Position numbers and translations under genes: made by a program. A stretch of 64,000 nt of DNA from Longimicrobiales bacterium (lineage in GTDB: Bacteria > Gemmatimonadota > Gemmatimonadetes > Longimicrobiales > Gaopeijiaceae): positions 1-64,000 of the forward strand of contig CBDFMQ010000001.1 of assembly GCA_965249725.1 (NCBI GenBank), in the 5' to 3' direction. This document shows, piece by piece, positions 320-61,793 of this stretch. Position 1 is the stretch's first letter. The number at the start of each line of letters is the position of its first letter. The notes under the pieces are model-generated. The model searched no databases. It had not been told where the DNA came from and worked only from the letters and a program-made list of their open reading frames with translations.

Positions 320-676
320 TCATGCCCGCACCGTCCTCGGATGCTCAGCGAGCGTCTTCTGTGCATGGCACGACCGGCACAGGCTCTGCAGGTTCGACGT
401 CTCGTGCGTGCCGCCCGCGTCCAGCGGAACGACGTGATCTACCAGAGTTGCAGCTGTCGCGCGGCCGTCCTCGGCGCAGTGGCGGCACAGCGGCTCGGCC
501 TTCGGCTGACGTGACCTGATCCTGCGCCACGGCCCGCCGTAACCGCGCGCCTTCGCACTGCCACGCGTCTTCGTGTCCAGCCGGTGGTGCGCCCGCGTGT
601 GCTCACCGCACCTGCCGCGCTCCACCAGTACGTTGCAGCCTGGCTGCATGCACGGACGCTTTGGTGCTACTGGCAC
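320..676 (-). CDS. Packaging-associated HNH endonuclease
   Basis: PxxPKRPCxxPGC N-terminus, PLCRHC...VDHVVP...NLQSLCRSCHAQKT; GTG start with GAGGAGG RBS. Confidence 0.9.
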   Translation of the reverse strand: MPVAPKRPCMQPGCNVLVERGRCGEHTRAHHRLDTKTRGSAKARGYGGPWRRIRSRQPKAEPLCRHCAEDGRATAATLVDHVVPLDAGGTHETSNLQSLCRSCHAQKTLAEHPRTVRA

Positions 677-703
677 TGTGTCACGCCCTCCTCGCCTCAA
701 ACG

Positions 704-1451: not shown

Positions 1452-2498
1452 TCACGCCACCTCGCTCACGTTCCGGTAGGCCCGGATGAACGCCGCGGCG
1501 AGTTGCGGGACGATCGCGTTGCCGTAGGCGCGCAGGCGTCCCACGCGGTTGGGAACCCCATGGGCCAGCGGGAATGTGCCGGATTCAACGCGCCGCGCTT
1601 TTCCGTCCGCACAGTCCAAAAAACTCGATCCCTCAACTGAAAAGTGGCACATGGATCCTTCCTGTTCTCCGCCGCGCCATTGTGATCCGATGCCACCGGG
1701 GTATTCCAGCCCGCGAGGGTTGCTAGCTTGCGGCCCGTCTGCCCGTCCGGCTCCGGGCCGCCCGTGCTTCCCGTCGGGCTCGGCCAGCCCGCGAGCATCT
1801 TCGCCACCAAGGGGAGGCTGGATTGGCTCGCCCCCTCTCGATTCCACTCCCTCACGGTCCCGGCCATCGTTCGCCGGTCCTGGTTGTCGTCGCTGGCGTT
1901 CGGCGTCGGCCAGCCCGCCAGCAGATCCGTCGTCTTCCGGCTGGAATCCGTGTTGCCCGCTGCGTTGTATCCCTTCTGCGCTGGCGTCCCGGCCATCGGC
2001 GTCGGCCACCCACCAAAGCCGCTGACGGATGTGCGGTGCGCCGACGCTCGCAGCCGGCAGATCGGCGGCCCCGCAGGCATATCCCACGTGCTCCAGATCA
2101 GCGCGTACTCCGGCGAGCCATTCACGTCCAAGGTTGCTCGCAACCTGCTCTCCAAAGAGCGTTGCAGGCCGGCGCTCGGCGATGAGCCGGAAAAAAGCGG
2201 GCCACAGGTGTCTTCGATCGGCATGGCCACGTCGCTGTCCAGCGCTCGAAAGCGGCTGACACGGAACGGAGCCGGTCCAGACGGGCCGCTCGTCGGGCCA
2301 TCCGGCGAGCCGGAGCGCGTGGCCCCAGCCGCCGATCCCGGCGAAGAAGTGACACTGGGTGTAGCCCTCGAGCTCATCCGGCGCGACCTCGTCGATGCTC
2401 CGCTCGTCCACGTCGCCAGGCGCGATCAGCCCCTCGGCGATCAGGTTGCGCAGCCACTCGGCGGCATACGGCTCGATCTCGTTGTAGTAGGCTCTCAC
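1452..2498 (-). CDS. DNA (cytosine-5) methyltransferase, alpha chain (no motif IX in this frame)
   Basis: FFAGIGG (I), GSVPCQPLS (IV), GEQV (VI), PHIRQR (VIII), YGNAIVP (X). Confidence 0.9.
   Translation of the reverse strand: MRAYYNEIEPYAAEWLRNLIAEGLIAPGDVDERSIDEVAPDELEGYTQCHFFAGIGGWGHALRLAGWPDERPVWTGSVPCQPLSSAGQRRGHADRRHLWPAFFRLIAERRPATLFGEQVASNLGREWLAGVRADLEHVGYACGAADLPAASVGAPHIRQRLWWVADADGRDASAEGIQRSGQHGFQPEDDGSAGGLADAERQRRQPGPANDGRDREGVESRGGEPIQPPLGGEDARGLAEPDGKHGRPGAGRADGPQASNPRGLEYPGGIGSQWRGGEQEGSMCHFSVEGSSFLDCADGKARRVESGTFPLAHGVPNRVGRLRAYGNAIVPQLAAAFIRAYRNVSEVA
1466..2224 (-). CDS. Nested alternative-frame protein, putative methyltransferase beta chain (motif IX plus WPTP repeats)
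   Basis: Same-strand ORF inside the MTase; four GW[PN][TS]P repeats and LNPAHSRWPMGFP; ATG at 2224 inferred. Confidence 0.7.
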   Translation of the reverse strand: MPIEDTCGPLFSGSSPSAGLQRSLESRLRATLDVNGSPEYALIWSTWDMPAGPPICRLRASAHRTSVSGFGGWPTPMAGTPAQKGYNAAGNTDSSRKTTDLLAGWPTPNASDDNQDRRTMAGTVREWNREGASQSSLPLVAKMLAGWPSPTGSTGGPEPDGQTGRKLATLAGWNTPVASDHNGAAENRKDPCATFQLRDRVFWTVRTEKRGALNPAHSRWPMGFPTAWDACAPTATRSSRNSPRRSSGPTGT

Positions 2499-2504
2499 GT
2501 CGTC

Positions 2505-3032
2505 TCATCCATTCACTCGACCGGTCCGGGCCTCGGTCCAGTATCCGATAGCGGGAATGCTCGCTGCGTCGTGTCTCGGACCGTCGTGGAGCACGCCCAA
2601 CCGGACCGGACCGGGGGTGGTGCGACGAACCATCCGCCCCGTCTCCGCGTCCCAGACGATCGGCTCGACTCCCCGCTCCGCAGGTGTGAGATCGCGTAGC
2701 TCGGCCCCGCAGACGGGGCACGGCCCCTCGCTGCCCCCCTCGCTCTCCCAGCGCAGGTAACGCGAGCGCAGATCCGAGGGCCGCTGTCCGTTGCTGCGGC
2801 TCGCCCGATGCGCCTTCGCCAGCTTCCTGATCTCCGCCGGCTTCGGGAAGTACCGCCCGCCGTCGCGCAGGTAGGCCGTGACCGCAGCCTCCAGATCATC
2901 CACCGGCAGATCATCGAGCACCTCGGCCCATAGCTTGGCGGCTTCGTTCGCGCTCACGTCCCTCGGCAGCGGATAGACGAAGCGCAGCCGGTTGATCGCT
3001 GCCTGTGCGTCGATGAACTTGACGCACCTCAC
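2505..3032 (-). CDS. Phage replicative helicase loader/inhibitor-like protein with C-terminal CxxC
   Basis: WAEVLDDLP...AAVTAYL...YFPKPAEIR; directly downstream of the initiator. Confidence 0.6.
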   Translation of the reverse strand: MRCVKFIDAQAAINRLRFVYPLPRDVSANEAAKLWAEVLDDLPVDDLEAAVTAYLRDGGRYFPKPAEIRKLAKAHRASRSNGQRPSDLRSRYLRWESEGGSEGPCPVCGAELRDLTPAERGVEPIVWDAETGRMVRRTTPGPVRLGVLHDGPRHDAASIPAIGYWTEARTGRVNG

Positions 3033-4042
3033 AGCTCGGCCCTCAGCATTTCGAGGCCTTGTTTGGCGGCCGCCTCAGCATCCACGCCCTTGGCTTCCAG
3101 CTCGTCGCGGATCTCGTACCAGCGCTCGCGGTTCGCCCGGTCGTTGACGATGTCGAGCGGGTCGGGCGGTCCCGTGCCGTTGCCTACCGGACGCCCGTAC
3201 TCGCTGCGTAGCCAATTGCGGAACGCCGCGTCCCAGTCGGTCTGCACCCGGCCGTTCGACAGCGCATGGTCGCGGAACCGCGCGGCCTCCAACGCGAGAT
3301 CCCGGCCCGCCGCCCCGGCGATCTCCGAATGGGTGGCGTTCGGTTCCCAATCACCCGGCAACGGCCCTTTTCTTTTGGCCCCCCGATAGGGGGGTTTTTC
3401 TTTTTCCGTATTCCGTTCTTCCGTATTCCGTTCTTCCGTATTCCGTTCTTCCGTATTCCGTTCTTCCGTTCTTCCGTGATCGGGTAGGGGATCGGGTATC
3501 CCCTTCGGAGGGGATGGGGGAGGGGATACCTGAGGGGATGGGGGAGGGGATACCTGAGGGGATGGGGGAGGGGATAGGTCCGGGAAAGGCCTGACGAGCT
3601 CGTAGTAATCCGCGAAGTCGTTGACAACCTTGAGTTTAGGCAAGCCGCAAAGGTGCTTCATTACATTCTTGCGGTGGTTGTCGTTCGTGAGCGTCCGGCT
3701 CGGCTCGAACTTCAGAGCGTTGCGCAGCCAGAAAACGTTGCGTTCACGCATCAGCCATCCCATTCGAGGGGGATTGGGTATCCCCTCCGGTATGGGATTG
3801 GGTATCCCCTCCGAAGGGGATTCGCCTTGAAGCTCGAAGAGAGCGTTTCGGACGTCTTCGGGTGGCAGGTTCGTCGCCTCGGATAGGACCGCCTCCGCAG
3901 CCGGAATGACGTCGATCCCCGTGGCCCCAAGGCGCAGCTTCAGGTGGAACCAGATCAATTGCGCGTGCGCGCTCATGTCCACGAACTCGGGGCTCTCCAG
4001 GAGCACTGTATGGATCGCCCGATAGTCGCCCCGCTCAGTCAT
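3029..4042 (-). CDS. Phage replication initiator (lambda O-like architecture)
   Basis: N-terminal helical domain, central repeat linker, C-terminal LPGDWEP...FRDH...DWDAAFRNW. Confidence 0.75.
   Translation of the reverse strand: MTERGDYRAIHTVLLESPEFVDMSAHAQLIWFHLKLRLGATGIDVIPAAEAVLSEATNLPPEDVRNALFELQGESPSEGIPNPIPEGIPNPPRMGWLMRERNVFWLRNALKFEPSRTLTNDNHRKNVMKHLCGLPKLKVVNDFADYYELVRPFPDLSPPPSPQVSPPPSPQVSPPPSPPKGIPDPLPDHGRTEERNTEERNTEERNTEERNTEKEKPPYRGAKRKGPLPGDWEPNATHSEIAGAAGRDLALEAARFRDHALSNGRVQTDWDAAFRNWLRSEYGRPVGNGTGPPDPLDIVNDRANRERWYEIRDELEAKGVDAEAAAKQGLEMLRAEL
3404..3476. repeat. Four perfect 15-bp tandem repeats (TTCCGTATTCCGTTC) plus partial copies
   Basis: Direct reading; encodes ERNTE repeats. 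Confidence 0.95.
3508..3576. repeat. 24-bp tandem repeat GAGGGGATGGGGGAGGGGATACCT (two full copies, one partial)
   Basis: Direct reading; encodes SPPPSPQV. Confidence 0.95.
3770..3813. repeat. 20-bp direct repeat GGGATTGGGTATCCCCTCCG x2 (degenerate third copy near 3488-3507)
   Basis: Direct reading. Confidence 0.9.
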
Positions 4043-5147
4043 CAACGGCCTGCCCATTCTTGAGTGTGGTGATTCCCTGGCACAGACAGCCAATGGCAAG
4101 CGCCAAAAGCAGGACGTCGCCGCCGTGGCGCACGTCGATGCCGGACACGAGTTCCAGCGCCGTCTCGACGAGTTCGCCGGGGTCGAAGTCTTGGGTCGCC
4201 AGGATCTCCCGCACGCTCGGCGGCGTCAGATGGGCCAGAAACGGAACTGCGTTGTCAGGGGAAGGGTCGCTCATGCCGGTCGCTCCACTGGCAGCTTTGA
4301 CCGGAGCGACACGAGTTCTTAAGCCAATGGTCGTCCCGCATTCCGGGCAACACCCCTTCTCGCTCGTGCCCGCCTTGGTGCACGGCTCGACCAGCTTGGG
4401 TGGGAACGTGGCGAAATGGGCGCCGGGATATGCGTGGGTCGGGATCGTCCAGGCGTTGCGCAGGTTCGCGCCTATTTCTGCCTGTTCGGCGACCGTTCTC
4501 TTTTCCTTCCATGTGCCTGCACGGCGGTCATACGTATCAGAACCCTTGCGCGGTACTCTCTCGCGACCTTTTCGCCGGGCATGTGTGTTCGGGCTGCATG
4601 TCACCCGCACCGCATCCGCGTCGTAGAAGTACCGGGCGGCCTTCGTGAGCAGGTACAGCTTCTCGTGCGCCGAGGTGGGCCGGTCCCTCACACTCTCCGG
4701 CATCGGGTTCGGTTTGTGCCACACGATTTCGCTTCTCAGCCACCAGCCGTCCGCCTGGAGCGCCAAGGCGACGCGGGCGGGCATCATCACGAGGTCCTTC
4801 GGCTTGAGGCCAGACGGTGTCTTGGGGCGTGCCAAGCCGTTTTGTACGAGGCGACCCTTATTGTCCGAGGCTCCAGCTCTGTGCGTCGAACGATCTCCGC
4901 TAGAGTACGAGTCCCCGTAGTTCAGCCAGAGCGTGCCGTCCTTGCGCAGCACTCGCCGCACCTCGCGGAACACGGTGACGATCGTTTCTAGGTGTTCCTG
5001 CAACGTCGGCTCCAGCCCGATAGCGCCCGCGACCCCGTAGTCCCGCAGCCCCCAGTACGGCGGGCTCGTCACGACGCAGTGGACGGACTCTTCCGGGAGG
5101 GTGCGCAGCCGCTCTAGGCAGTCGCCCACGTGAATCCGGACGCTCAT
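4035..5147 (-). pseudogene. N4-C/N6-A DNA methyltransferase (beta class) lacking its C-terminal SAM-binding motif; possibly fused to the next small gene
   Basis: GDC...VVTSPPY, WHKPNPMPES, HFATFPPKL present; no DPFxGxG. Confidence 0.65.
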
Positions 5148-5381
5148 CCGGGCCCCCTGAGCCACCAGGCACCCGCGTCGTCGAAGATCCGGTCTATGAG
5201 CTCGCGGAAGGGGTCCGGGCCGGACCTGCGCGAAAATGGGGCGTTGTGAAAACCGTTGACAAAGGTACCGGCCTTCGGGCGCGCTTCGGGCCTGGAACGA
5301 CGCGATCCGCTACCCCCGCTACCGTGCGTATTAGGCGTATCTGTGCGGTTTAACGGGTTCTGTGAGGTTTTCTCGGTTGAA
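5144..5381 (-). CDS. 3' end of a phage gene cut by the block boundary
   Basis: Open frame ending ...FRELIDRIFDDAGAWWLRGPG*, ATGA overlap with the MTase start. Confidence 0.5.
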
Positions 5382-5382
5382 C

Positions 5383-8300
5383 TGTGCGTTCTTCGCTTGT
5401 GTGCAGCTCGGGCTGATCCCCGTCCCGGTCTGCCCGCCGTCGAGCCACGGATTCAGGGCGGCGCTCTACCAGATGAACCACATCGCAGAGGACTGCGGGG
5501 CGGCCGCCGTTCTGACGGACCGCTCATACCTCTGGTCGATCAAGCTGCACAACGCGCGCACCAATCTCTCAACGCTGTGGGGCAAAGGGGGCTATACGTC
5601 GCGATTGAAGTGGATCGTGACCGGTGACGCCGAACCGACCACCGGGATCGGTTTTCCGGAAGCCCACTCCGAAGTCCTGTTCCTGCAGTACACATCGGGT
5701 TCGACGAGCGAGCCAAAGGGGGTCATGGTCACGCACCGCAATGTCATCAGCAATTGCGAAGGACTGTTCGGCCACGTCCCCATCGGTGTGTCGTGGCTGC
5801 CCCAGTATCACGACATGGGATTGATCGGCTCCTATCTGTTCGTGGCGCTCGCCGGCGGGACGACCTACGGGATCTCCCCGATCGATTTCATCCAACGGCC
5901 CCTGGTCTGGCTCGAAGCCATCAGCCGATATCGAGCGACAGTCACGGCAGCCCCCAACTTCGCCTACCAGTACTGCCTGCGCCCAGACAAGATCGAGGAC
6001 GACGAGCTCGATCGGCTCGACCTCGGCTCTCTCCGACTCGTCATGAACGGCGCGGAGCCGGTGCGGGCCGACGTGTTCCGCGGATTCCTCAGGAGATTCA
6101 GTGCCCGCGGTCTGACGGAGGGCAGCTTCTGCACGGCCTACGGGCTGGCCGAGTACACGTTGGCGGTGTCGAACCGCGGGACCAGAGTCGCATCGTTCGA
6201 CGCCAAGCGACTGAGGGCGGACGAAGTGCGCGTTTGCGAGAGCGAGCGGGCAGAGGGCGTGGACCTGGTCAGCTGCGGTGCGCCGGTCGGTTCGACCGAG
6301 ATTCGGATCGTGGATGTCCGGGACGAGGCTCGGATCGCGCCCGAGGGGCGGGTCGGGGAGGTGTGGGTCACCGGACCCAGCAAGTGCCTCGGGTACTGGG
6401 ATCGACCCGATCTGACCGAGCGGGTGTTCGAGGCCAGGCTCTGTGGTGAAAGCGGCGACGAGCGGAGTTGGCTACGGACGGGGGACCTCGGGTTTATGAG
6501 AGATGGGGAGCTGTTCGTCTGCGGCCGCTCGAAGGACCTGATCATCGTTCGCGGCCTCAACTATCACCCCCAGGACATCGAGGCGATCGTCGAGGAGGAC
6601 CTGCTGGTCCGTCGGGGATGTGTCGCCGCGTTCGCGGTCGAGAAGGGCGGGGGCGAGGCGCTGGTTGTGGTCGCCGAGCTCAGGAACGCGAAGCGATATC
6701 CCGATGTGGAGATGCTCAACCGGAGCCTCAGCCAACGTTTGGGCATCGTCGCCGACACCGTTGTCTACATTCGAGCGCGAACGATCCCAAAGACGAGCTC
6801 TGGCAAGATCGTGCGGCATCGAGCCCGTGCCCAATGGCTCGAGAGCCGCTTGAAGGTCGTAGCGCAAGTCGAGGCCGCTTCGTATCGCCGCCCACCGGCG
6901 GCGGCCCCCCCGGCAGACGCTTCGCGCGAGTCGCTGGCGACGATGTTCCGTCGGTATGGCCTCACGGGCTCGCAGAGCCTGGCCGTCGGCGAGGTGGGTC
7001 TCGACTCGCTTGGGGTGGCCGAGTTCGCGCTGGATCTCGAGAAATACCTGAGGGCACGAGGTGCCACCGACCTGGCGGCCGGCATCGATGTCCGGTGGTT
7101 GCAGAAGATCGCCGTCTCCGAACTGTTCGAGCTGGTTCGGCAATTGGGTGCCTCTGGCCCCCACGCGAAGGTGCGCTTGCAGCGGGCTATGGCCTCGCTT
7201 CGGCGAGAGCACCAAGCGATCGAGCACGACATGATGATGCGAGACTCTCGACTGCCCGTCGGGGTGCCGCTGCCCGACCGGGTCGAGGTCAGTGCCGGCT
7301 CACGTCATAATCTCGGATCCTCTTCCGATGCCGGCTCCACACCTGGTGAAGGTGGCATTCTTCTGACCGGAGGGACCGGTTTCTTCGGACCCTTCCTGCT
7401 CCGGAGCCTGCTCGAGCAGTGTGACGACCCGATCCACGTGGTCGTGCGGGCCGAGGACACTGCCCACGGTGAAGAGCGTCTTCGGGAGGCAATGACCTCG
7501 CTTGGCGGACCTGCGGACCCCGAATTCTGGGAGACATGGAGGCGCAGGGTGATCCCGGTTTGCGGCGACCTCGCCCTGCCCAACCTCGGGCTGTCACCGG
7601 AGGACTGGGCGTCCTTGGCCGAAGGGATCCACACCGTCTACCACAACGGGGCACGGGTCAACTATCTGCTCGACTACTCGGCCATGCGCACCGCCAACGT
7701 TCTCGGGACCCGGGACTTGGTCCGCTTCGCCCGGAGTCGCCGCTCGAAGGTCGTGAACTACATCTCCACGACGTTCGTCTTCGGATGGTCGTCGAGGGAC
7801 ACCCTGTTCGAGAGCGACGACAACCAGAACCTGGAGTTGCTCGACTTCGGATACAGCCAGAGCAAGTGGGTGTCGGAGCAGATCGTGCTCAACGCGATCA
7901 GGGAAGGGCTGTCCGCTCGCGTCTTCCGGCCGGCGCTGATCGCACCGTCCGTGACCGGAGGCGGTCAGCACTTCGACATCGCGATCCGCCTCCTGACCTT
8001 CATGCTCAAACACGGCATCAGCACCACCGCGCAGAACCAGGTGAGCTTTTCACCTGCCGATCTGGTCGCTGACAACGTCGTCGCCATCTCCAACTTGCCC
8101 GATACCGTGGGAGAGACCTTTCACGTCACGCGTGACACGCACTCGACCATGCTCGACATCACGGAGGTCCTCGGTGAGTTGACCGACACGCGATTCGTAA
8201 ACTACGACCTCGCCGACTTCGTCCCGCACGTCATCGAGCACTGCCGAAAGGACGACCTCCTCTTTCCGTTGCTCAACTTCCTCGTGCGCTCCGTCGAAAA

Positions 8301-8481
8301 CATCACCGCGATGGAGTTCAAACGATACGACAACCGGAACTATCGGCTGGCCCGTGCGAGGTCGCCCTTCGGCAGAGAAGATCCACCACTGGAGGATGTC
8401 GTCTCCGGGATCGTGCGCTTCCTGCGAAGGCACGGCCTCGTCGATGGCCTCGACGCCACGCGACTTCTCGAGAAGGTGTAG
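5383..8481 (+). CDS. Fatty acyl-AMP ligase - carrier domain - thioester reductase fusion (5' truncated)
   Basis: LQYTSGST, WLPQYHDMGLIG, RTGDLG, PKTSSGK; GLDSL; LTGGTGFFG and YSQSK; begins mid-domain at AFFACVQLGLIPVP. Confidence 0.9.
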   Translation, partial: CAFFACVQLGLIPVPVCPPSSHGFRAALYQMNHIAEDCGAAAVLTDRSYLWSIKLHNARTNLSTLWGKGGYTSRLKWIVTGDAEPTTGIGFPEAHSEVLFLQYTSGSTSEPKGVMVTHRNVISNCEGLFGHVPIGVSWLPQYHDMGLIGSYLFVALAGGTTYGISPIDFIQRPLVWLEAISRYRATVTAAPNFAYQYCLRPDKIEDDELDRLDLGSLRLVMNGAEPVRADVFRGFLRRFSARGLTEGSFCTAYGLAEYTLAVSNRGTRVASFDAKRLRADEVRVCESERAEGVDLVSCGAPVGSTEIRIVDVRDEARIAPEGRVGEVWVTGPSKCLGYWDRPDLTERVFEARLCGESGDERSWLRTGDLGFMRDGELFVCGRSKDLIIVRGLNYHPQDIEAIVEEDLLVRRGCVAAFAVEKGGGEALVVVAELRNAKRYPDVEMLNRSLSQRLGIVADTVVYIRARTIPKTSSGKIVRHRARAQWLESRLKVVAQVEAASYRRPPAAAPPADASRESLATMFRRYGLTGSQSLAVGEVGLDSLGVAEFALDLEKYLRARGATDLAAGIDVRWLQKIAVSELFELVRQLGASGPHAKVRLQRAMASLRREHQAIEHDMMMRDSRLPVGVPLPDRVEVSAGSRHNLGSSSDAGSTPGEGGILLTGGTGFFGPFLLRSLLEQCDDPIHVVVRAEDTAHGEERLREAMTSLGGPADPEFWETWRRRVIPVCGDLALPNLGLSPEDWASLAEGIHTVYHNGARVNYLLDYSAMRTANVLGTRDLVRFARSRRSKVVNYISTTFVFGWSSRDTLFESDDNQNLELLDFGYSQSKWVSEQIVLNAIREGLSARVFRPALIAPSVTGGGQHFDIAIRLLTFMLKHGISTTAQNQVSFSPADLVADNVVAISNLPDTVGETFHVTRDTHSTMLDITEVLGELTDTRFVNYDLADFVPHVIEHCRKDDLLFPLLNFLVRSVENITAMEFKRYDNRNYRLARARSPFGREDPPLEDVVSGIVRFLRRHGLVDGLDATRLLEKV

Positions 8482-55415: not shown

Positions 55416-56666
55416 TCACCCCTGAATCCTCCTTTCGATGTACTGAACGGCGGCCCGGTAGGTGTCAGGAATAAGGTGGGCGTAGGTCTCCTCGACGACC
55501 TTGGTCGTGTCACCTAGCAGGGTGGCGATCACATTGAGCGGAACGCCGTCCTGGGCCAGCCATGAGGCATAGGTGTGACGGCCACTGTGTAAGGTGAGCC
55601 CGTCGCCTTCCCTTCCGTACTTGATCCCGGCCAGCTCGAAGGCGTCCTGGGTCCAGCGAGCCGAGGTGCCGGCCGCCACAGGCTGGTCCCCGCGATGAGG
55701 GCTCAGAATCAAGTACCGCTCCCCGGCATACCCTCTGCGGATGTGATCTTCGATGATCGTGACGAGGCTCTCGGTGATCGGTACGTCCCTTTCACCACGC
55801 CGCGTCTTCGGCCTCCAGGAGTAAACATCCTTTCGGGACTGTACCCGGATCAGTGGTTCGCTGCCATCTAGAAGGACATCAACGCCAGTCCTTAGATGTA
55901 GTATCTCGCCTTGGCGCAGGCCCGCGAGGAACGCAATCGCGATCATGGCGCGGTGTGGGGTCCCAATCATGCTACGATCCAGGTCCGCCCACTCCGGCGG
56001 AGTCAGGAACACGGCCCGCGTGGGCCGGATCTCGGGCATGTCGATGCCCTTCCAGGGGTTGCTACGGATCGCGGGCTGTACGTTGCGGCGAGCGAGCAGA
56101 TCGGCCTCCTCGTCCATGACCATGCTCCAGAGTGCCCCGCACACGACCTGGCAAGCCCCTTGGCTGGCAGGTGCCCACGGACGCCCCGCTGTGCTTGCTT
56201 TCGGGCCGTGCAGGTACGCGCGCGCCTCGTCGACCGTCAGCTCTTCCATAGGGAAGTCCGGGCCGACGTCTCTCTCAAGGTGCCCGAGAACGGTCCGATA
56301 CTTCTTGATGGTGGCCCTGCCGCGTGTGGCCTCTTTGAGCCTCAGGAACCTCTCGACGGCCGGCCCGAGCCTAGGCGAATCAGAGCCCATGCGCCGCAGC
56401 TTGGTGGCGTCGCCGTTACGTAGCGCGGCCTGAGCGTCGGTGATGTGCATGTCGCCACGGCGGATCGCCTCAAGCACGTTCCAGTCGCCACGATCCATGA
56501 GCTGAGTCAAAACGGTATGGCGCTCGGTGGCCACATCCCGATCGCCGGTCCTGAGCGAGATCGCCAGGCGGCCGCCGTTGAACCGCGAGTGCCTACGGTC
56601 GAAGTAGGCGCGGCCAGCTCGCCATACGAGGCCCTTGGGGGCACGTGAGCGCTTTCTAGGACTCAC
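55416..56666 (-). CDS. int: Tyrosine integrase
   Basis: AGLRQGEI, PKT, HSGRHTY, LLGD, TYAHL. Confidence 0.92.
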   Translation of the reverse strand: MSPRKRSRAPKGLVWRAGRAYFDRRHSRFNGGRLAISLRTGDRDVATERHTVLTQLMDRGDWNVLEAIRRGDMHITDAQAALRNGDATKLRRMGSDSPRLGPAVERFLRLKEATRGRATIKKYRTVLGHLERDVGPDFPMEELTVDEARAYLHGPKASTAGRPWAPASQGACQVVCGALWSMVMDEEADLLARRNVQPAIRSNPWKGIDMPEIRPTRAVFLTPPEWADLDRSMIGTPHRAMIAIAFLAGLRQGEILHLRTGVDVLLDGSEPLIRVQSRKDVYSWRPKTRRGERDVPITESLVTIIEDHIRRGYAGERYLILSPHRGDQPVAAGTSARWTQDAFELAGIKYGREGDGLTLHSGRHTYASWLAQDGVPLNVIATLLGDTTKVVEETYAHLIPDTYRAAVQYIERRIQG

Positions 56667-56901
56667 TGCCCACCAGCTCCTCACACTCTTGGACGAAGCG
56701 ATCGACAGCCTTCGGCGAGATTCGGTAGCGTGCCTTGCTAGAGCGCGACACGTTCAGCACCCCCGGAGACTTCAGGTGGCCTTCGTGGATCATCTTGAGG
56801 ACGAAGCCGGTGGACATTCCGCCGATGCGCTCTGCCGCCTGTTTCGGGGAGAGCCAGTTGTACTCGGCCTCGTACTGCTCTGGGGTTTTCGTTCTGCTCA
56901 C
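56656..56901 (-). CDS. Excisionase-like HTH protein
   Basis: WLSPKQAAERIG...YRISPKAVDRF, adjacent to int. Confidence 0.8.
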   Translation of the reverse strand: MSRTKTPEQYEAEYNWLSPKQAAERIGGMSTGFVLKMIHEGHLKSPGVLNVSRSSKARYRISPKAVDRFVQECEELVGSES

Positions 56902-58316: not shown

Positions 58317-58663
58317 TGGCCTGTCCTCACGACCCAGACGGCGCACCGCCGTCCGGTATGCGGAGAATTTCTACGGTGCCCGGAGTCGCGGATCATGCCG
58401 AGCTTCACGAGCTCGTTACGGCGGGCGCATACGCTCTGGCGCAGCATCGACAGGCCGCCTTCTATCTCCGCGTCGGTGGCCCCAGCGTCGCCCCGTGCCA
58501 GGATGTAGCCGTAGACCTCGGCCCGCTTGGTCGGCGCACATTCAGCTGCGCTCCGTGCCGCCTCGCGCGACGTGTCGGAGCCCTTCTGGTGCGGGGGCAG
58601 CCCTCCGTAGGGCTGCCGCTCATCGAGGAAGAGCGGCAGGCCCGTCAGTTCGGCCGGCCTCAC
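58313..58663 (-). CDS. Phage winged-helix protein
   Basis: DTSREAA...GATDAEI...ARRNELVKLG.IRDSG.RR. Confidence 0.75.
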   Translation of the reverse strand: MRPAELTGLPLFLDERQPYGGLPPHQKGSDTSREAARSAAECAPTKRAEVYGYILARGDAGATDAEIEGGLSMLRQSVCARRNELVKLGMIRDSGHRRNSPHTGRRCAVWVVRTGQ

Positions 58664-59796
58664 ACCGGCCTCGGGATGGAGTGTTCTGCCCGCAGAGGTA
58701 CTGCCACAAAGACCACCGGGTCGCCGTCTACGGGTTCGATGCGTATCGGCCTAGTGGCTTCGCTCAATTTTTCGCTCAATCTCAGGATCATGCGTCCACT
58801 GACACTGCGCGCGATCTGGCGCAGATACACAGCGTTGACAGCGAACGTGATGTCTCCCTGAACGTCGGCGGCGAGCGTCTCCTCGTATCCGCCCCTGTCT
58901 GTGGAGTCCGAGCGGAAGAGCGCCCTACCGTCGTAGAGATCGACCTGAAGCCGGAAGAAATCCTCGCGCATGACGGAAACAGCCAGCCCACAGGCTCTGG
59001 CAACGGATGTCGCTTCCAGCTCGGCGCTGACCGGGCAATCGGCGGCGTCAGGGGTCACACGATCGAGGTCGGGATACTTCCCTTCCTTTTGCGATACCCG
59101 AAGCGTCTCGTACCCAGCGGCGAAATCGGCCCAGCGGCGATCCCAGCGAAAGCGTACATCCTTATCGCCCGCGCGCTTGGCCAATGCCGCCAGCAGAGGT
59201 GCGTCCTGTCGCGCAATCATCAGGGACAGCCCGGCGGGCGCCTCGATCCGTGAGTCGTACCGGCCGAGCACGTGGCCGCTCGTGGCTTCGACTGTGAGGT
59301 GCCCTTCGCGCTCCCGAAAATGCACACAGGCGAGGAGCGGGCGGGCGACGTCCTCGGTGGACGCGGCCCAGGTGGTCCGGTCCAGCGCGTCGCGTAGTAC
59401 GGATGCCGGCACCTCCACCTCTCCCGCCGACTCGATGTCCCCGAACAGAGGCCAGTCGCTAACCGATAGCGTGGGCAGGGTCACCGAGGCGGAACCGCCG
59501 CGCGCCGTGCGTGGCCCTTCACCGTTTCCAGACAACTCGATCGTCTCGCCGGATGCGTGCTCGGCGAGCGCCAACAGGCCGTCGGGCCGGATCAACATCC
59601 GGCCTTCCTCGCACACGTCGCACTCGACCTGCACAGAGCCCCAACGCTGCAGGTCCGTGGCCTGGAGCTCCAACCCGTCCTCGCGGGCCGCAACATGGAT
59701 CATGTCCAGCACCGGCAAAACGGAGCGGGACGCCTGGACCTTGGAAACAGTGGCCAGTGCGGTGCGTAACGCCTTGGCTTCGACGGTTGCTTTCAC
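58660..59796 (-). CDS. dnaN: Prophage-encoded DNA polymerase III beta clamp homologue
   Basis: 378 aa; LPVL...ATDL, RPLLACV, ATSGHVL, GKYPD..RV.P, NAVYL, VAVPLR. Confidence 0.88.
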   Translation of the reverse strand: MKATVEAKALRTALATVSKVQASRSVLPVLDMIHVAAREDGLELQATDLQRWGSVQVECDVCEEGRMLIRPDGLLALAEHASGETIELSGNGEGPRTARGGSASVTLPTLSVSDWPLFGDIESAGEVEVPASVLRDALDRTTWAASTEDVARPLLACVHFREREGHLTVEATSGHVLGRYDSRIEAPAGLSLMIARQDAPLLAALAKRAGDKDVRFRWDRRWADFAAGYETLRVSQKEGKYPDLDRVTPDAADCPVSAELEATSVARACGLAVSVMREDFFRLQVDLYDGRALFRSDSTDRGGYEETLAADVQGDITFAVNAVYLRQIARSVSGRMILRLSEKLSEATRPIRIEPVDGDPVVFVAVPLRAEHSIPRPV

Positions 59797-60166: not shown

Positions 60167-60904
60167 CTAGTGGCCCTCCACCTGGGCGGTCGGCCGGGTG
60201 TGGTGATCCCCGAGCGGCAGTTCGCCGTCGTCGGTAGGCTCGGGCTCGGCTTGTTCCAACTCTTCGGCCTCGATCACCTCCGGTGGATCGCCACCGTCGA
60301 GCTGCTCGGCGAGCGCGGCCTTCCGGTCGGCGATCGAGGGGCCGATGTCCTCGGCTTCCTCGGCTGTGTGAAGCCCTACCGCGAGTTCCGGGCAGTGCGT
60401 CCGGGACCAGAATGCGGCGGCACGGTAACGCAGCATCTGCTCCGGCATCGTCTTCCACTTCGAGCCGTTCTTCGTCGCCCAGCCCTCCGCCTTCGCCATC
60501 CCGACCGTGACCAGTGTTCCGATCAGCTCCTCGCCATCCCCTAGGTCCACCGCCACGGCTCGGCAGCCCCATGAGTCCTCGCCCTCCGTGCCCTCGAAGC
60601 GGAAGCGCAGGGGAGAGAAGCGCCCCGAACGGTTCACGGCAGCGATCAGGAACTGAGCGCTCCAGCTCGGACGGCCGTTGATGATGTGAAGGTTCTGCAT
60701 CACGGCCAGGACCGGGACCTGAGTGCGCTGGGCCATCTCCATCGCCACAAGCACGTTCGAGGCATTGTCCCGGTAGTCGCTCGGGATGATCGAACTCTCC
60801 GATAGCGCCTTGGCCTTGCGAGCTACCAGATCCCAGCCCTCTTCCGTGTCGGTCGATAGGATTCCGGGCTCGGTGCGAGTCAGCGCAGTTCCGTTGCTAG
60901 ACAT
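60167..60904 (-). CDS. RecT-like single-strand annealing protein
   Basis: MQNLHIINGRPSW, KWKTMPEQMLRYRA, GLHTAEE; paired with an exonuclease. Confidence 0.85.
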   Translation of the reverse strand: MSSNGTALTRTEPGILSTDTEEGWDLVARKAKALSESSIIPSDYRDNASNVLVAMEMAQRTQVPVLAVMQNLHIINGRPSWSAQFLIAAVNRSGRFSPLRFRFEGTEGEDSWGCRAVAVDLGDGEELIGTLVTVGMAKAEGWATKNGSKWKTMPEQMLRYRAAAFWSRTHCPELAVGLHTAEEAEDIGPSIADRKAALAEQLDGGDPPEVIEAEELEQAEPEPTDDGELPLGDHHTRPTAQVEGH

Positions 60905-61793
60905 CGGTGTCCTCCTCGTTGCGGGTGGCCCATCCAGGTAGGCGCAGCGTCAGGAACTCGTCGCCGTAGCCCGGCCAGTAGTCCTCGGCTTCGCAGTACT
61001 TGAAGTGATCGAGAAGCCGCGTGACCTCGTCGCTCGTGATGCGCAGATCATCCTCGTCGATGAGGTAGCAGGCCACCGAGTAGGGTGGAGCCGATTCGAC
61101 GGTGACCAGCGCGGACGCCGTGCACTCGGTGCCGAGAGCCGCCAGTCCACGCCGATAGAATGCCTCCCTGCGGTGGTAGCCACGCCGCGCGGCATCCGAG
61201 CCGAATACCCACGGTGAAGCGTCGCGCGTGCTCTTGAGGTTCACCGACAGGTTGGCACGCTCGACCAACCGATCGGGCCGGATCTTGCAAAGCACCCCGG
61301 TCTCGGGGTCCTCAAAGACGCCCGTGACCTCCAATTCGCCACGGCCCTCGAACAGGCTGCCGGATCGTGGGTGCCTTAGCACCGCATCTCGCATGCCGAG
61401 CACCGATGCGTAGTCGGCCTCCGCGAGCACCGCGATCGTCGGATCATCCGGCGCTTCGCCCTTGCCTGGGTCGTGGGACTTGCAGAAGCTCTGGCCGTCC
61501 CGGTAGACCGAGCCCTGGTATGCGCAGCGCTCTCCGTCCTTCCTCTTCCCCTCGCACCGGCCCAGCGTCACGTAACGGCCCTCGAACGTCTCGGGCTCCA
61601 GGATCGCCAGGTGTAGCGCTGTGCCCCGCTCTAGCGCCGGGGTCGCGCTGCGTGGCGCCTGGAGCGTGTAGCGGTAATGCTCGGGGCACCGCCTGAATTC
61701 TTCCAGCAACGACGCGCTCATCGCCGGGAGCGCCAAGTAGTCGGACAGCGCTAGGTCGCGCGTCCATCCTGGGTTAAGGGTTGCCGTTGTCAT
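60897..61793 (-). CDS. RecE/exonuclease VIII-like PD-(D/E)XK protein (DUF3799-type)
   Basis: SASLL, GTALHLAILEP, CKIRPD, VESAPPY, WPGY. Confidence 0.85.
   Translation of the reverse strand: MTTATLNPGWTRDLALSDYLALPAMSASLLEEFRRCPEHYRYTLQAPRSATPALERGTALHLAILEPETFEGRYVTLGRCEGKRKDGERCAYQGSVYRDGQSFCKSHDPGKGEAPDDPTIAVLAEADYASVLGMRDAVLRHPRSGSLFEGRGELEVTGVFEDPETGVLCKIRPDRLVERANLSVNLKSTRDASPWVFGSDAARRGYHRREAFYRRGLAALGTECTASALVTVESAPPYSVACYLIDEDDLRITSDEVTRLLDHFKYCEAEDYWPGYGDEFLTLRLPGWATRNEEDTDV

Follow-up and report, generated by a model that had tools for sequence, protein, structure and literature searches.

A phage C5-methyltransferase gene with a second conserved chain in an overlapping frame, carrying exchangeable cassettes that may recognise DNA targets

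M.EcoHK31I of E. coli, which recognises YGGCCR, is an alpha/beta C5-methyltransferase (PMC2836561, PMC3404938), and M.AquI, with the target CYCGRG, is a C5-methyltransferase of two polypeptides (PMC3404938). The temperate Bacillus phages SPR, SPbeta, phi3T, rho11 and H2 are described as encoding multispecific C5-methyltransferases, and anti-restriction is the usual reading of such orphan phage enzymes (PMC8936443). The accessible portions of PMC5537653 and PMC11954522 hold no description of a two-frame cassette layout. Here we analyse a C5-methyltransferase gene near the start of a 64,000-nucleotide stretch of DNA from a Longimicrobiales bacterium (the window), in which a main frame (alpha) overlaps a +1 frame (beta) carrying tandem W-P-T-P cassettes (Table 1).

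Table 1 Features of the methyltransferase gene and its surroundings, in window coordinates
Feature	Position	Strand	Basis or remark
Alpha chain, 348 aa	1452..2498	minus	C5-methyltransferase catalytic domain + linker
Alpha motif I, FFAGIGG	2328-2348	minus	
Alpha motif IV, PCQ	2256-2264	minus	
Alpha motif VI, EQV	2142-2150	minus	
Alpha motif VIII, RQR	2019-2027	minus	
Alpha motif X, YGNAI	1512..1526	minus	alpha tail aligned to motif X
GAGGT, ribosome-binding-like site	2386..2390	minus	8 nt upstream of ATG 2377
Beta chain, +1 frame	1466..2377	minus	likely 303 aa; phrog_1008, phrog_31772, open frame, stop depletion
Conserved beta N-domain, predicted helix + hairpin	2012..2224	minus	overlaps alpha motifs V-VIII; both frames constrained
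Cassette 1, WPTPMAGTPAQ..., 32 aa	1913..2008	minus	widespread type: 27/415 cassettes in other loci
Cassette 2, WPTPNASDD..., 42 aa	1787..1912	minus	
Cassette 3, WPSPTGSTGG..., 26 aa	1709..1786	minus	
Cassette 4, WNTPVASDH..., + linker to motif IX	1589..1708	minus	
IX-like stretch in beta frame, LNPAHSRWPMGFP	1550..1588	minus	profile alignment
Helicase-loader-like gene	2505-3032	minus	upstream context
Replication-initiator-like gene	3029-4099	minus	upstream context
N4/N6 DNA methylase	4035-5165	minus	upstream context
HNH gene	320..700	minus	downstream context, near contig start

The alpha frame matches PF00145 over residues 75–170 (E 3.2e-14) and phrog_363 over its full length (E 1.1e-77). The motif labels in Table 1, which we take to be established knowledge, were checked against an alignment with M.HhaI. 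The initial annotation of this DNA had described the frame as carrying motifs I, IV, VI, VIII and X, lacking motif IX and being of low complexity from VIII to X, all of which holds: residues 175–285 are rich in G, R, E and P, and entropy drops there to 3.57 bits from 3.91 for residues 1–170. Among 162 alphas of the family, pattern searches find PCQ in 161, GE[QN]V in 160, HxRxR in 156 and motif X, which is also present in the window, in 152; an IX-like motif is found by pattern in none of the 162. The structural model has pLDDT mostly >85 over residues 1–170 and 331–347 (catalytic domain and motif X) and <50 at 178–199 and 204–286, indicating predicted disorder, and its top Foldseek matches are M.HaeIII and M.HhaI (E ~6e-7, TM ~0.33 over the whole chain). 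Alpha residues ~175–286 are an unconstrained, predicted-disordered linker.

The +1 frame is a real, conserved gene. Openness was examined in 80 viral loci chosen on alpha alone plus the window (81 in all), from which 10 with cut-off or broken alphas were left out, with 61 remaining after dereplication. The +1 frame is stop-free from motif IV to motif X in 59 of these 61, compared with 1.6 expected when synonymous alpha codons are resampled, and the +2 frame is open in none of them. In the two exceptions, L010 and L064, long alphas made the test region overrun the beta stop, and both betas get to motif IX. When loci were picked with the beta alignment instead, a PCQ-bearing alpha lay at offset +1 in 80/80. 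Ahead of the conserved N-domain, dN/dS in the beta frame is 2.4–2.6; it falls to 0.70–0.75 within that domain and to 0.32 at motif IX and rises to 1.9 at motif X, with alpha values for the same regions of 0.07–0.12, 0.33–0.39, 0.75 and 0.17; the pairs compared are non-independent by common ancestry, and these ratios are descriptive. Over alpha codons 105–149, third positions are frozen where beta residues depend on them, and fourfold alpha sites are held so as to preserve beta residues, the third position of V119, for example, being invariant. Conservation and dN/dS among homologues had been proposed at the outset as the check on the two-frame claim; both frames prove to be under selection, and the second is rarely interrupted.

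Beta matches phrog_1008 (E 3.3e-21) and phrog_31772. Its profile has no meaningful match among PDB sequences or in Pfam and none in NCBIfam, and the protein atlas returns unnamed viral clusters only. Modelled alone, beta reaches a mean pLDDT of 57.6 and a pTM of 0.26, with no Foldseek match at E<=0.001 and a best Z of 2.7 in a wide structure search. The beta leader contains, at alpha codons 71–73, a DLF motif in 29/120 loci (e.g. L041, L048, L054, L060) compared with 0.9 expected. DLF resembles the QL(S/D)LF clamp motif as given in PMC11139829, usually lacking a correctly placed Q. Its distribution among the loci is patchy, with 15 changes on a quick tree, of which at least 6 are forced, synonymous sites being saturated; the motif is absent from the window's beta (2280–2288). 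In some loci, ~185 codons resembling an endonuclease VII/HNH domain have been inserted into the beta frame immediately past alpha motif VI (L184:2049-3605, L185:2079-3425, L186:2019-3611 and L188:1974-3350; proteins P0166, P0189 and P0211), with both frames still open in 4/4 loci examined; the insert is possibly a homing nuclease that invaded a dual-coding gene. The missing Pfam and PDB matches, a clamp-motif-like DLF selected in a quarter of betas and the nuclease insert in some of them would leave room for other roles, such that beta might be a protein in its own right, for example, a scaffold with cassettes that bind proteins of the host or the phage, and alpha might methylate alone or with a host partner. 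We nevertheless regard this as very unlikely, given that alpha has neither motif IX nor a constrained variable region, that beta has an IX-like motif at the canonical place and that the two frames occur together in 162/163 loci.

The second frame had been given as 1466–2224 (252 aa), with four repeats and an end in LNPAHSRWPMGFP. The four repeats are there (GWPTP, GWPTP, GWPSP and GWNTP) and the frame is open, but its start probably lies at 2377, giving 303 aa, and 28 residues come after LNPAHSRWPMGFP. ATG 2377 corresponds to alpha codon 41, and its computed ribosome-site energy is -7.1 kcal/mol vs -3.0 for ATG 2224. Across 120 dereplicated loci, +1 stops are as numerous as under the null at alpha codons 9–30 (160 vs 160.8) and depleted downstream (25 vs 64.6 at codons 31–45, 3 vs 46.3 at codons 46–70 and 0 vs 9.8 at codons 71–93); in the same loci, ATGs in the +1 frame are enriched at alpha codons 27, 37 and 41. 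The proteins of the window's closest relatives are called from the same ATG as 2377. Given the stop depletion, the ATG enrichment, the GAGGT site and the relatives' calls, beta likely starts at 2377 and comprises 303 residues, the first 50 of which are mostly unconstrained. ATG 2224 is a possible internal start; as the family-wide start it was rejected, many homologues having no start codon there and stops being depleted upstream.

Read along the DNA, the elements succeed one another as is canonical for single-chain enzymes (VIII, cassettes, IX, X), with the cassettes and motif IX shifted to the +1 frame; the space from motif VIII to motif IX is taken up exactly by the cassettes, the first one starting where VIII ends. 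Such order and such an exact boundary would also suit a single polypeptide for which the ribosome moves into the +1 frame once past motif VIII and returns to the alpha frame ahead of motif X. This alternative appears extremely improbable, however, because the depletion of stops in beta sets in near alpha codon 31 and selection on beta covers codons 94–157, upstream of any such shift, because ATGs are enriched at codons 27–41, and because alpha remains open across the cassettes, which under a shift would be needless.

The C-terminal beta profile, LNP..GFP..W, aligns to motif IX of 6 single-chain C5 enzymes with a score of 17.4 (P 0.0075), the best of 30 shuffled controls scoring 13.1. We consider this match modest because a plain HMM of the beta IX missed motif IX of SPbeta. 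Together, the conservation and selection in both frames and the match of the beta profile to motif IX lend good support to the two-chain reading that was put forward initially, and alpha and beta very probably act as one two-chain enzyme.

The window departs from the family within motif IX itself. Its W-P-M-G reads W-L-M-G in 144/145 matched loci (17 unmatched) and in 325/330 matched proteins (29 unmatched); proline is found in 1/145 loci, namely the window, and in 0/330 proteins. The Leu-to-Pro change, at base 1563, is synonymous in alpha, and both genomic copies of the gene encode an identical beta. In contigs from four public runs of three samples, most of them from relatives, A (Leu) accounts for the entire depth at base 1563 in three runs and for 43.1/45.1 in the fourth. 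The proline may be a consensus error or a private mutation; if it is real, the window copy may be weakened. That the family is as described here with the window copy inactivated by this change strikes us as rather unlikely: the rarity of the proline and its presence in both copies speak for it, whereas the public reading of Leu fits a consensus error, albeit mostly from relatives, and the copy retains two intact frames and every catalytic motif.

We collected 415 cassettes from 142/162 loci, with the consensus W-P-T-P-x-x-x-D...L-x-x-x-A-x-L-A-G and a median length of 36 aa for internal units. The number of units varies among homologues, a count that the initial annotation had called for, from 1 to 6 per gene, and the longest family proteins have up to ~10 matches to the cassette pattern. 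The 415 cassettes fall into 152 clusters, 39 of them with at least 3 members; the window's own array stayed outside this clustering because its proline broke the IX pattern. Common types occur first, in the middle and last in the array, and some types prefer the first or the last position. Between internal cassettes of the same type (187 pairs, all internal), dN/dS is 0.15 in beta and 2.46 in alpha.

Gain, loss and reordering affect the cassettes as entire units and take place at a GCGGGCTGGCCGACGCC-like junction that they have in common. The C-terminal half of a cassette tracks its own N-terminal half in 170/239 pairs and the N-terminal half of the next cassette in 20/239, and same-type cassettes have a common successor in 24/688 pairs; the unit of inheritance spans WPTP to LAG. 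Among 28 proteins with an N-domain at least 92% identical to that of the window, 25 get to motif IX, and these close relatives display ~20 different arrays made from ~10 types; in these arrays, the types of window cassettes 1 and 2 are found in either order. The junction DNA is alike at all four window cassettes, a similarity that would permit recombination. As a separate observation, contigs of runs X1 and X3 are about tenfold shallower over window positions 1629–2004, within the cassettes, than over the constant parts, which fits many alleles with common ends and different cassettes, depth being read here as something other than copy number.

What these cassettes do can be judged in part from the motif that opens them. 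The TL consensus is given as P(STCA)PT(ILV)(TASV), located 10–50 residues before motif IX, and in known enzymes the key contacts are described as lying N-terminal to TL (PMC2413257). W-P-T-P-T resembles this consensus (PMC2413257): T or S is present at 263/263 cassette positions (by definition of the pattern), and the next residue is P in 244, compared with I, L or V in the TL consensus. The distance from T to motif IX in the loci has a median of 55 (5–95%: 37–71), above the published range, and the exchanged unit begins at the TP motif. G, T, R, D, S, N and K abound in the cassette loops. A comparison of the cassette profile with single-chain variable regions was not significant (P 0.47), and an HMM comparison with the SPbeta enzyme gave no match. 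Among 359 proteins examined, none has motifs IV, VI, VIII, IX and X in one chain, and none is a single-chain protein carrying these cassettes. Natural single-chain fusions were also sought among longer proteins and rejected: of 96 matches, none has all motifs, and the mixed ones look frameshifted. From position, selection and the TL-like motif, it is plausible that the cassettes are target-recognition domains; the initial claim that the WPTP units are modules stands as far as exchange and variable number are concerned, and its recognition part is plausible, with a profile comparison that is not significant.

There could also be two chains without a specificity for each cassette: one cassette, for example, the last before IX, would be used and the others kept as a silent reserve, or all would jointly provide relaxed, low-specificity binding. 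The preference of certain types for the first or last place would fit this, as would the absence of detected homology to known recognition domains, and PMC5537653 describes related phage C5 enzymes whose specificity is relaxed. We find it unlikely, given the strong purifying selection on internal cassettes, the spread of common types over all positions and the maintenance of ~150 distinct types, which suits diversifying specificity. If the two-chain model is accepted, one specificity per cassette seems just slightly more probable than its absence.

The reading we favour, with some confidence, is thus a two-chain C5 enzyme whose beta chain contributes exchangeable cassettes that are probably alternative DNA-recognition modules. 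Beta would be translated from its own start inside alpha, and its N-domain and motif IX would dock on alpha, rebuilding the small domain. The T or S of each W-P-T-P would correspond to the threonine of the TL motif, and the G/R/K/N/T-rich loop behind it would read bases; with the cassettes alternating in the DNA cleft, one enzyme could methylate several sites. The alpha stretch opposite the cassettes would be a passive linker that need only stay open to motif X. The likely benefit would be to shield phage DNA from host restriction enzymes during replication, and recombination would retune the set of recognised sites. A bolder proposal, offered tentatively, is that the overprinted beta is a programmable specificity subunit in thousands of phages, with hundreds of cassettes of 26–48 residues, each with its own DNA sequence, shuffled at a short junction and thereby retuning which host restriction sites are masked, and that in many members the same chain also docks on the sliding clamp, so that DNA would be methylated as it is copied. 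If true, the pool of cassettes would amount to a naturally occurring code book from short peptides to C5 target sequences.

The genomic context suggests an anti-restriction role. The genes of the upstream block (2505..5165) are joined to alpha by start/stop overlaps, and no restriction endonuclease gene was found among the scanned neighbours. A second copy, 99.3% identical, lies on contig C1, where genes for large terminase, portal and tail come after the HNH gene, with an integrase, sliding-clamp and exonuclease block at the far end. Given this continuation and this far end, the C1 copy belongs to a ~41-kb prophage that is present about twice; the integrase, clamp and exonuclease genes speak against the copies being prophage remnants. 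No attachment-site repeat of at least 12 bases was found at the ends of the second copy. The two methylase copies are the only PF00145 matches of the genome. In a third, related prophage, an internal deletion (G000:C2:92327-92395) leaves a 24-codon stub that keeps the start/stop overlap, and in genome G011 (L085) a clean internal deletion leaves only the ends of the methylase gene; as these remnants demonstrate, the gene is dispensable.

Several further observations concern the same prophages. The window segment 55351–62893 contains an integrase (55416–56684), a sliding-clamp homologue (58660–59796) and a DUF3799 exonuclease-like gene (60897–61793), and blocks ~99% identical to it are present on C1 and C3, which suggests that the methylase prophage encodes a clamp of its own. 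The replication-initiator gene includes short tandem repeats at window positions 3400–3580 and 3765–3825 (five copies of TEERN and three of PPPSPQVS), which may be iterons of an origin. Adjoining the prophage end, at 5362–8481, is a host gene for a fusion of a fatty acyl-AMP ligase-like protein with a terminal reductase domain. Two further features, at G000:C1 ~518627-520198 and 522843-523993, are a multi-copy 1.57-kb element within the tail region of the prophage and an array of 108-base tandem repeats.

The family is large. At the level of 50%-identity representatives, the beta profile matches 34,007 clusters with a cutoff of E<=0.001 and 8,020 when the cutoff is E<=1e-30, as well as 150 GenBank phage records. 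To our knowledge, a same-strand overlap of ~900 bases that is selected in both frames is on record for this enzyme class in one case; here, with 8,020 clusters at 50% identity and E<=1e-30, dual-frame overlap is a mass phenomenon. The suggestion that annotation pipelines miss the second chain is partly right. Among 60 GenBank phage matches listed, most have one feature over the match and 5 have two, and phage N15 has alpha alone annotated, its +1 frame containing two cassettes and motif IX; on the other side, the PhiXhv-5 record annotates both ORFs, PHROGs includes families for beta under the label DNA methyltransferase, and beta is matched by 3918 called proteins. The overlap explains the truncated or low-complexity look of many phage 'DNA cytosine methyltransferase' entries, and codon-optimised alpha clones would be expected to destroy beta and so to seem inactive. 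If the cassettes are recognition modules, the family would be a large anti-restriction system, often hidden by single-frame annotation, and how short variable peptides set the specificity of a C5-methyltransferase would become directly testable. More distant subfamilies share the two-frame layout: L088 (genome G004; 628–1959 and 633–1880) has four WPTP units, and L087 (genome G037; 1179–1964) places an IX-like motif and motif X together in a single frame, which reflects either a split as in M.AquI or a frameshift.

Compared with the described systems, the two-frame layout is known from M.EcoHK31I and tandem recognition domains are known from Bacillus phages; their combination in this phage family was not found in the open literature searched. 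The window gene is a member of PHROG 363 (alpha) and 1008/31772 (beta), labelled only 'DNA methyltransferase', families whose members include phage N15 gene 58, BcepC6B g33 and PhiXhv-5. By analogy, it may work like M.EcoHK31I, beside which we set it by description rather than as shown kin; among the best 40 of 61 plasmid tblastn matches of alpha, none is a record named EcoHK31I. The likeness noted initially is confirmed for the nested arrangement: in both, beta is nested entirely within alpha in another frame, alpha carries motifs I–VIII as well as X, and beta has IX. It does not extend to the recognition domain, which in M.EcoHK31I is described as residing in alpha (PMC2836561, PMC3404938), whereas here the alpha stretch from VIII to X has a dN/dS of 2.46 and pLDDT <50, and it is beta that holds the constrained variable part, in the form of tandem cassettes. 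Moreover, M.EcoHK31I is described with one specificity, and the window gene is in a prophage without a neighbouring restriction gene. With M.AquI, the gene shares the separation of the catalytic motifs from the distal variable region and motif IX on different chains, but motif X of M.AquI is described on the small chain and here is on alpha. Like the Bacillus phage enzymes, finally, it encodes an orphan phage enzyme with tandem, exchangeable T-motif modules between VIII and IX, as judged here by DNA position and shuffling. Those enzymes are described as single chains in one frame, with the TL motif late in the module, whereas the window gene uses two frames and its TP motif opens the exchanged unit; no sequence homology to them is detectable (SPbeta mtbP compared), and the cassette pool, with 152 clusters among 415 cassettes, is far larger than theirs.
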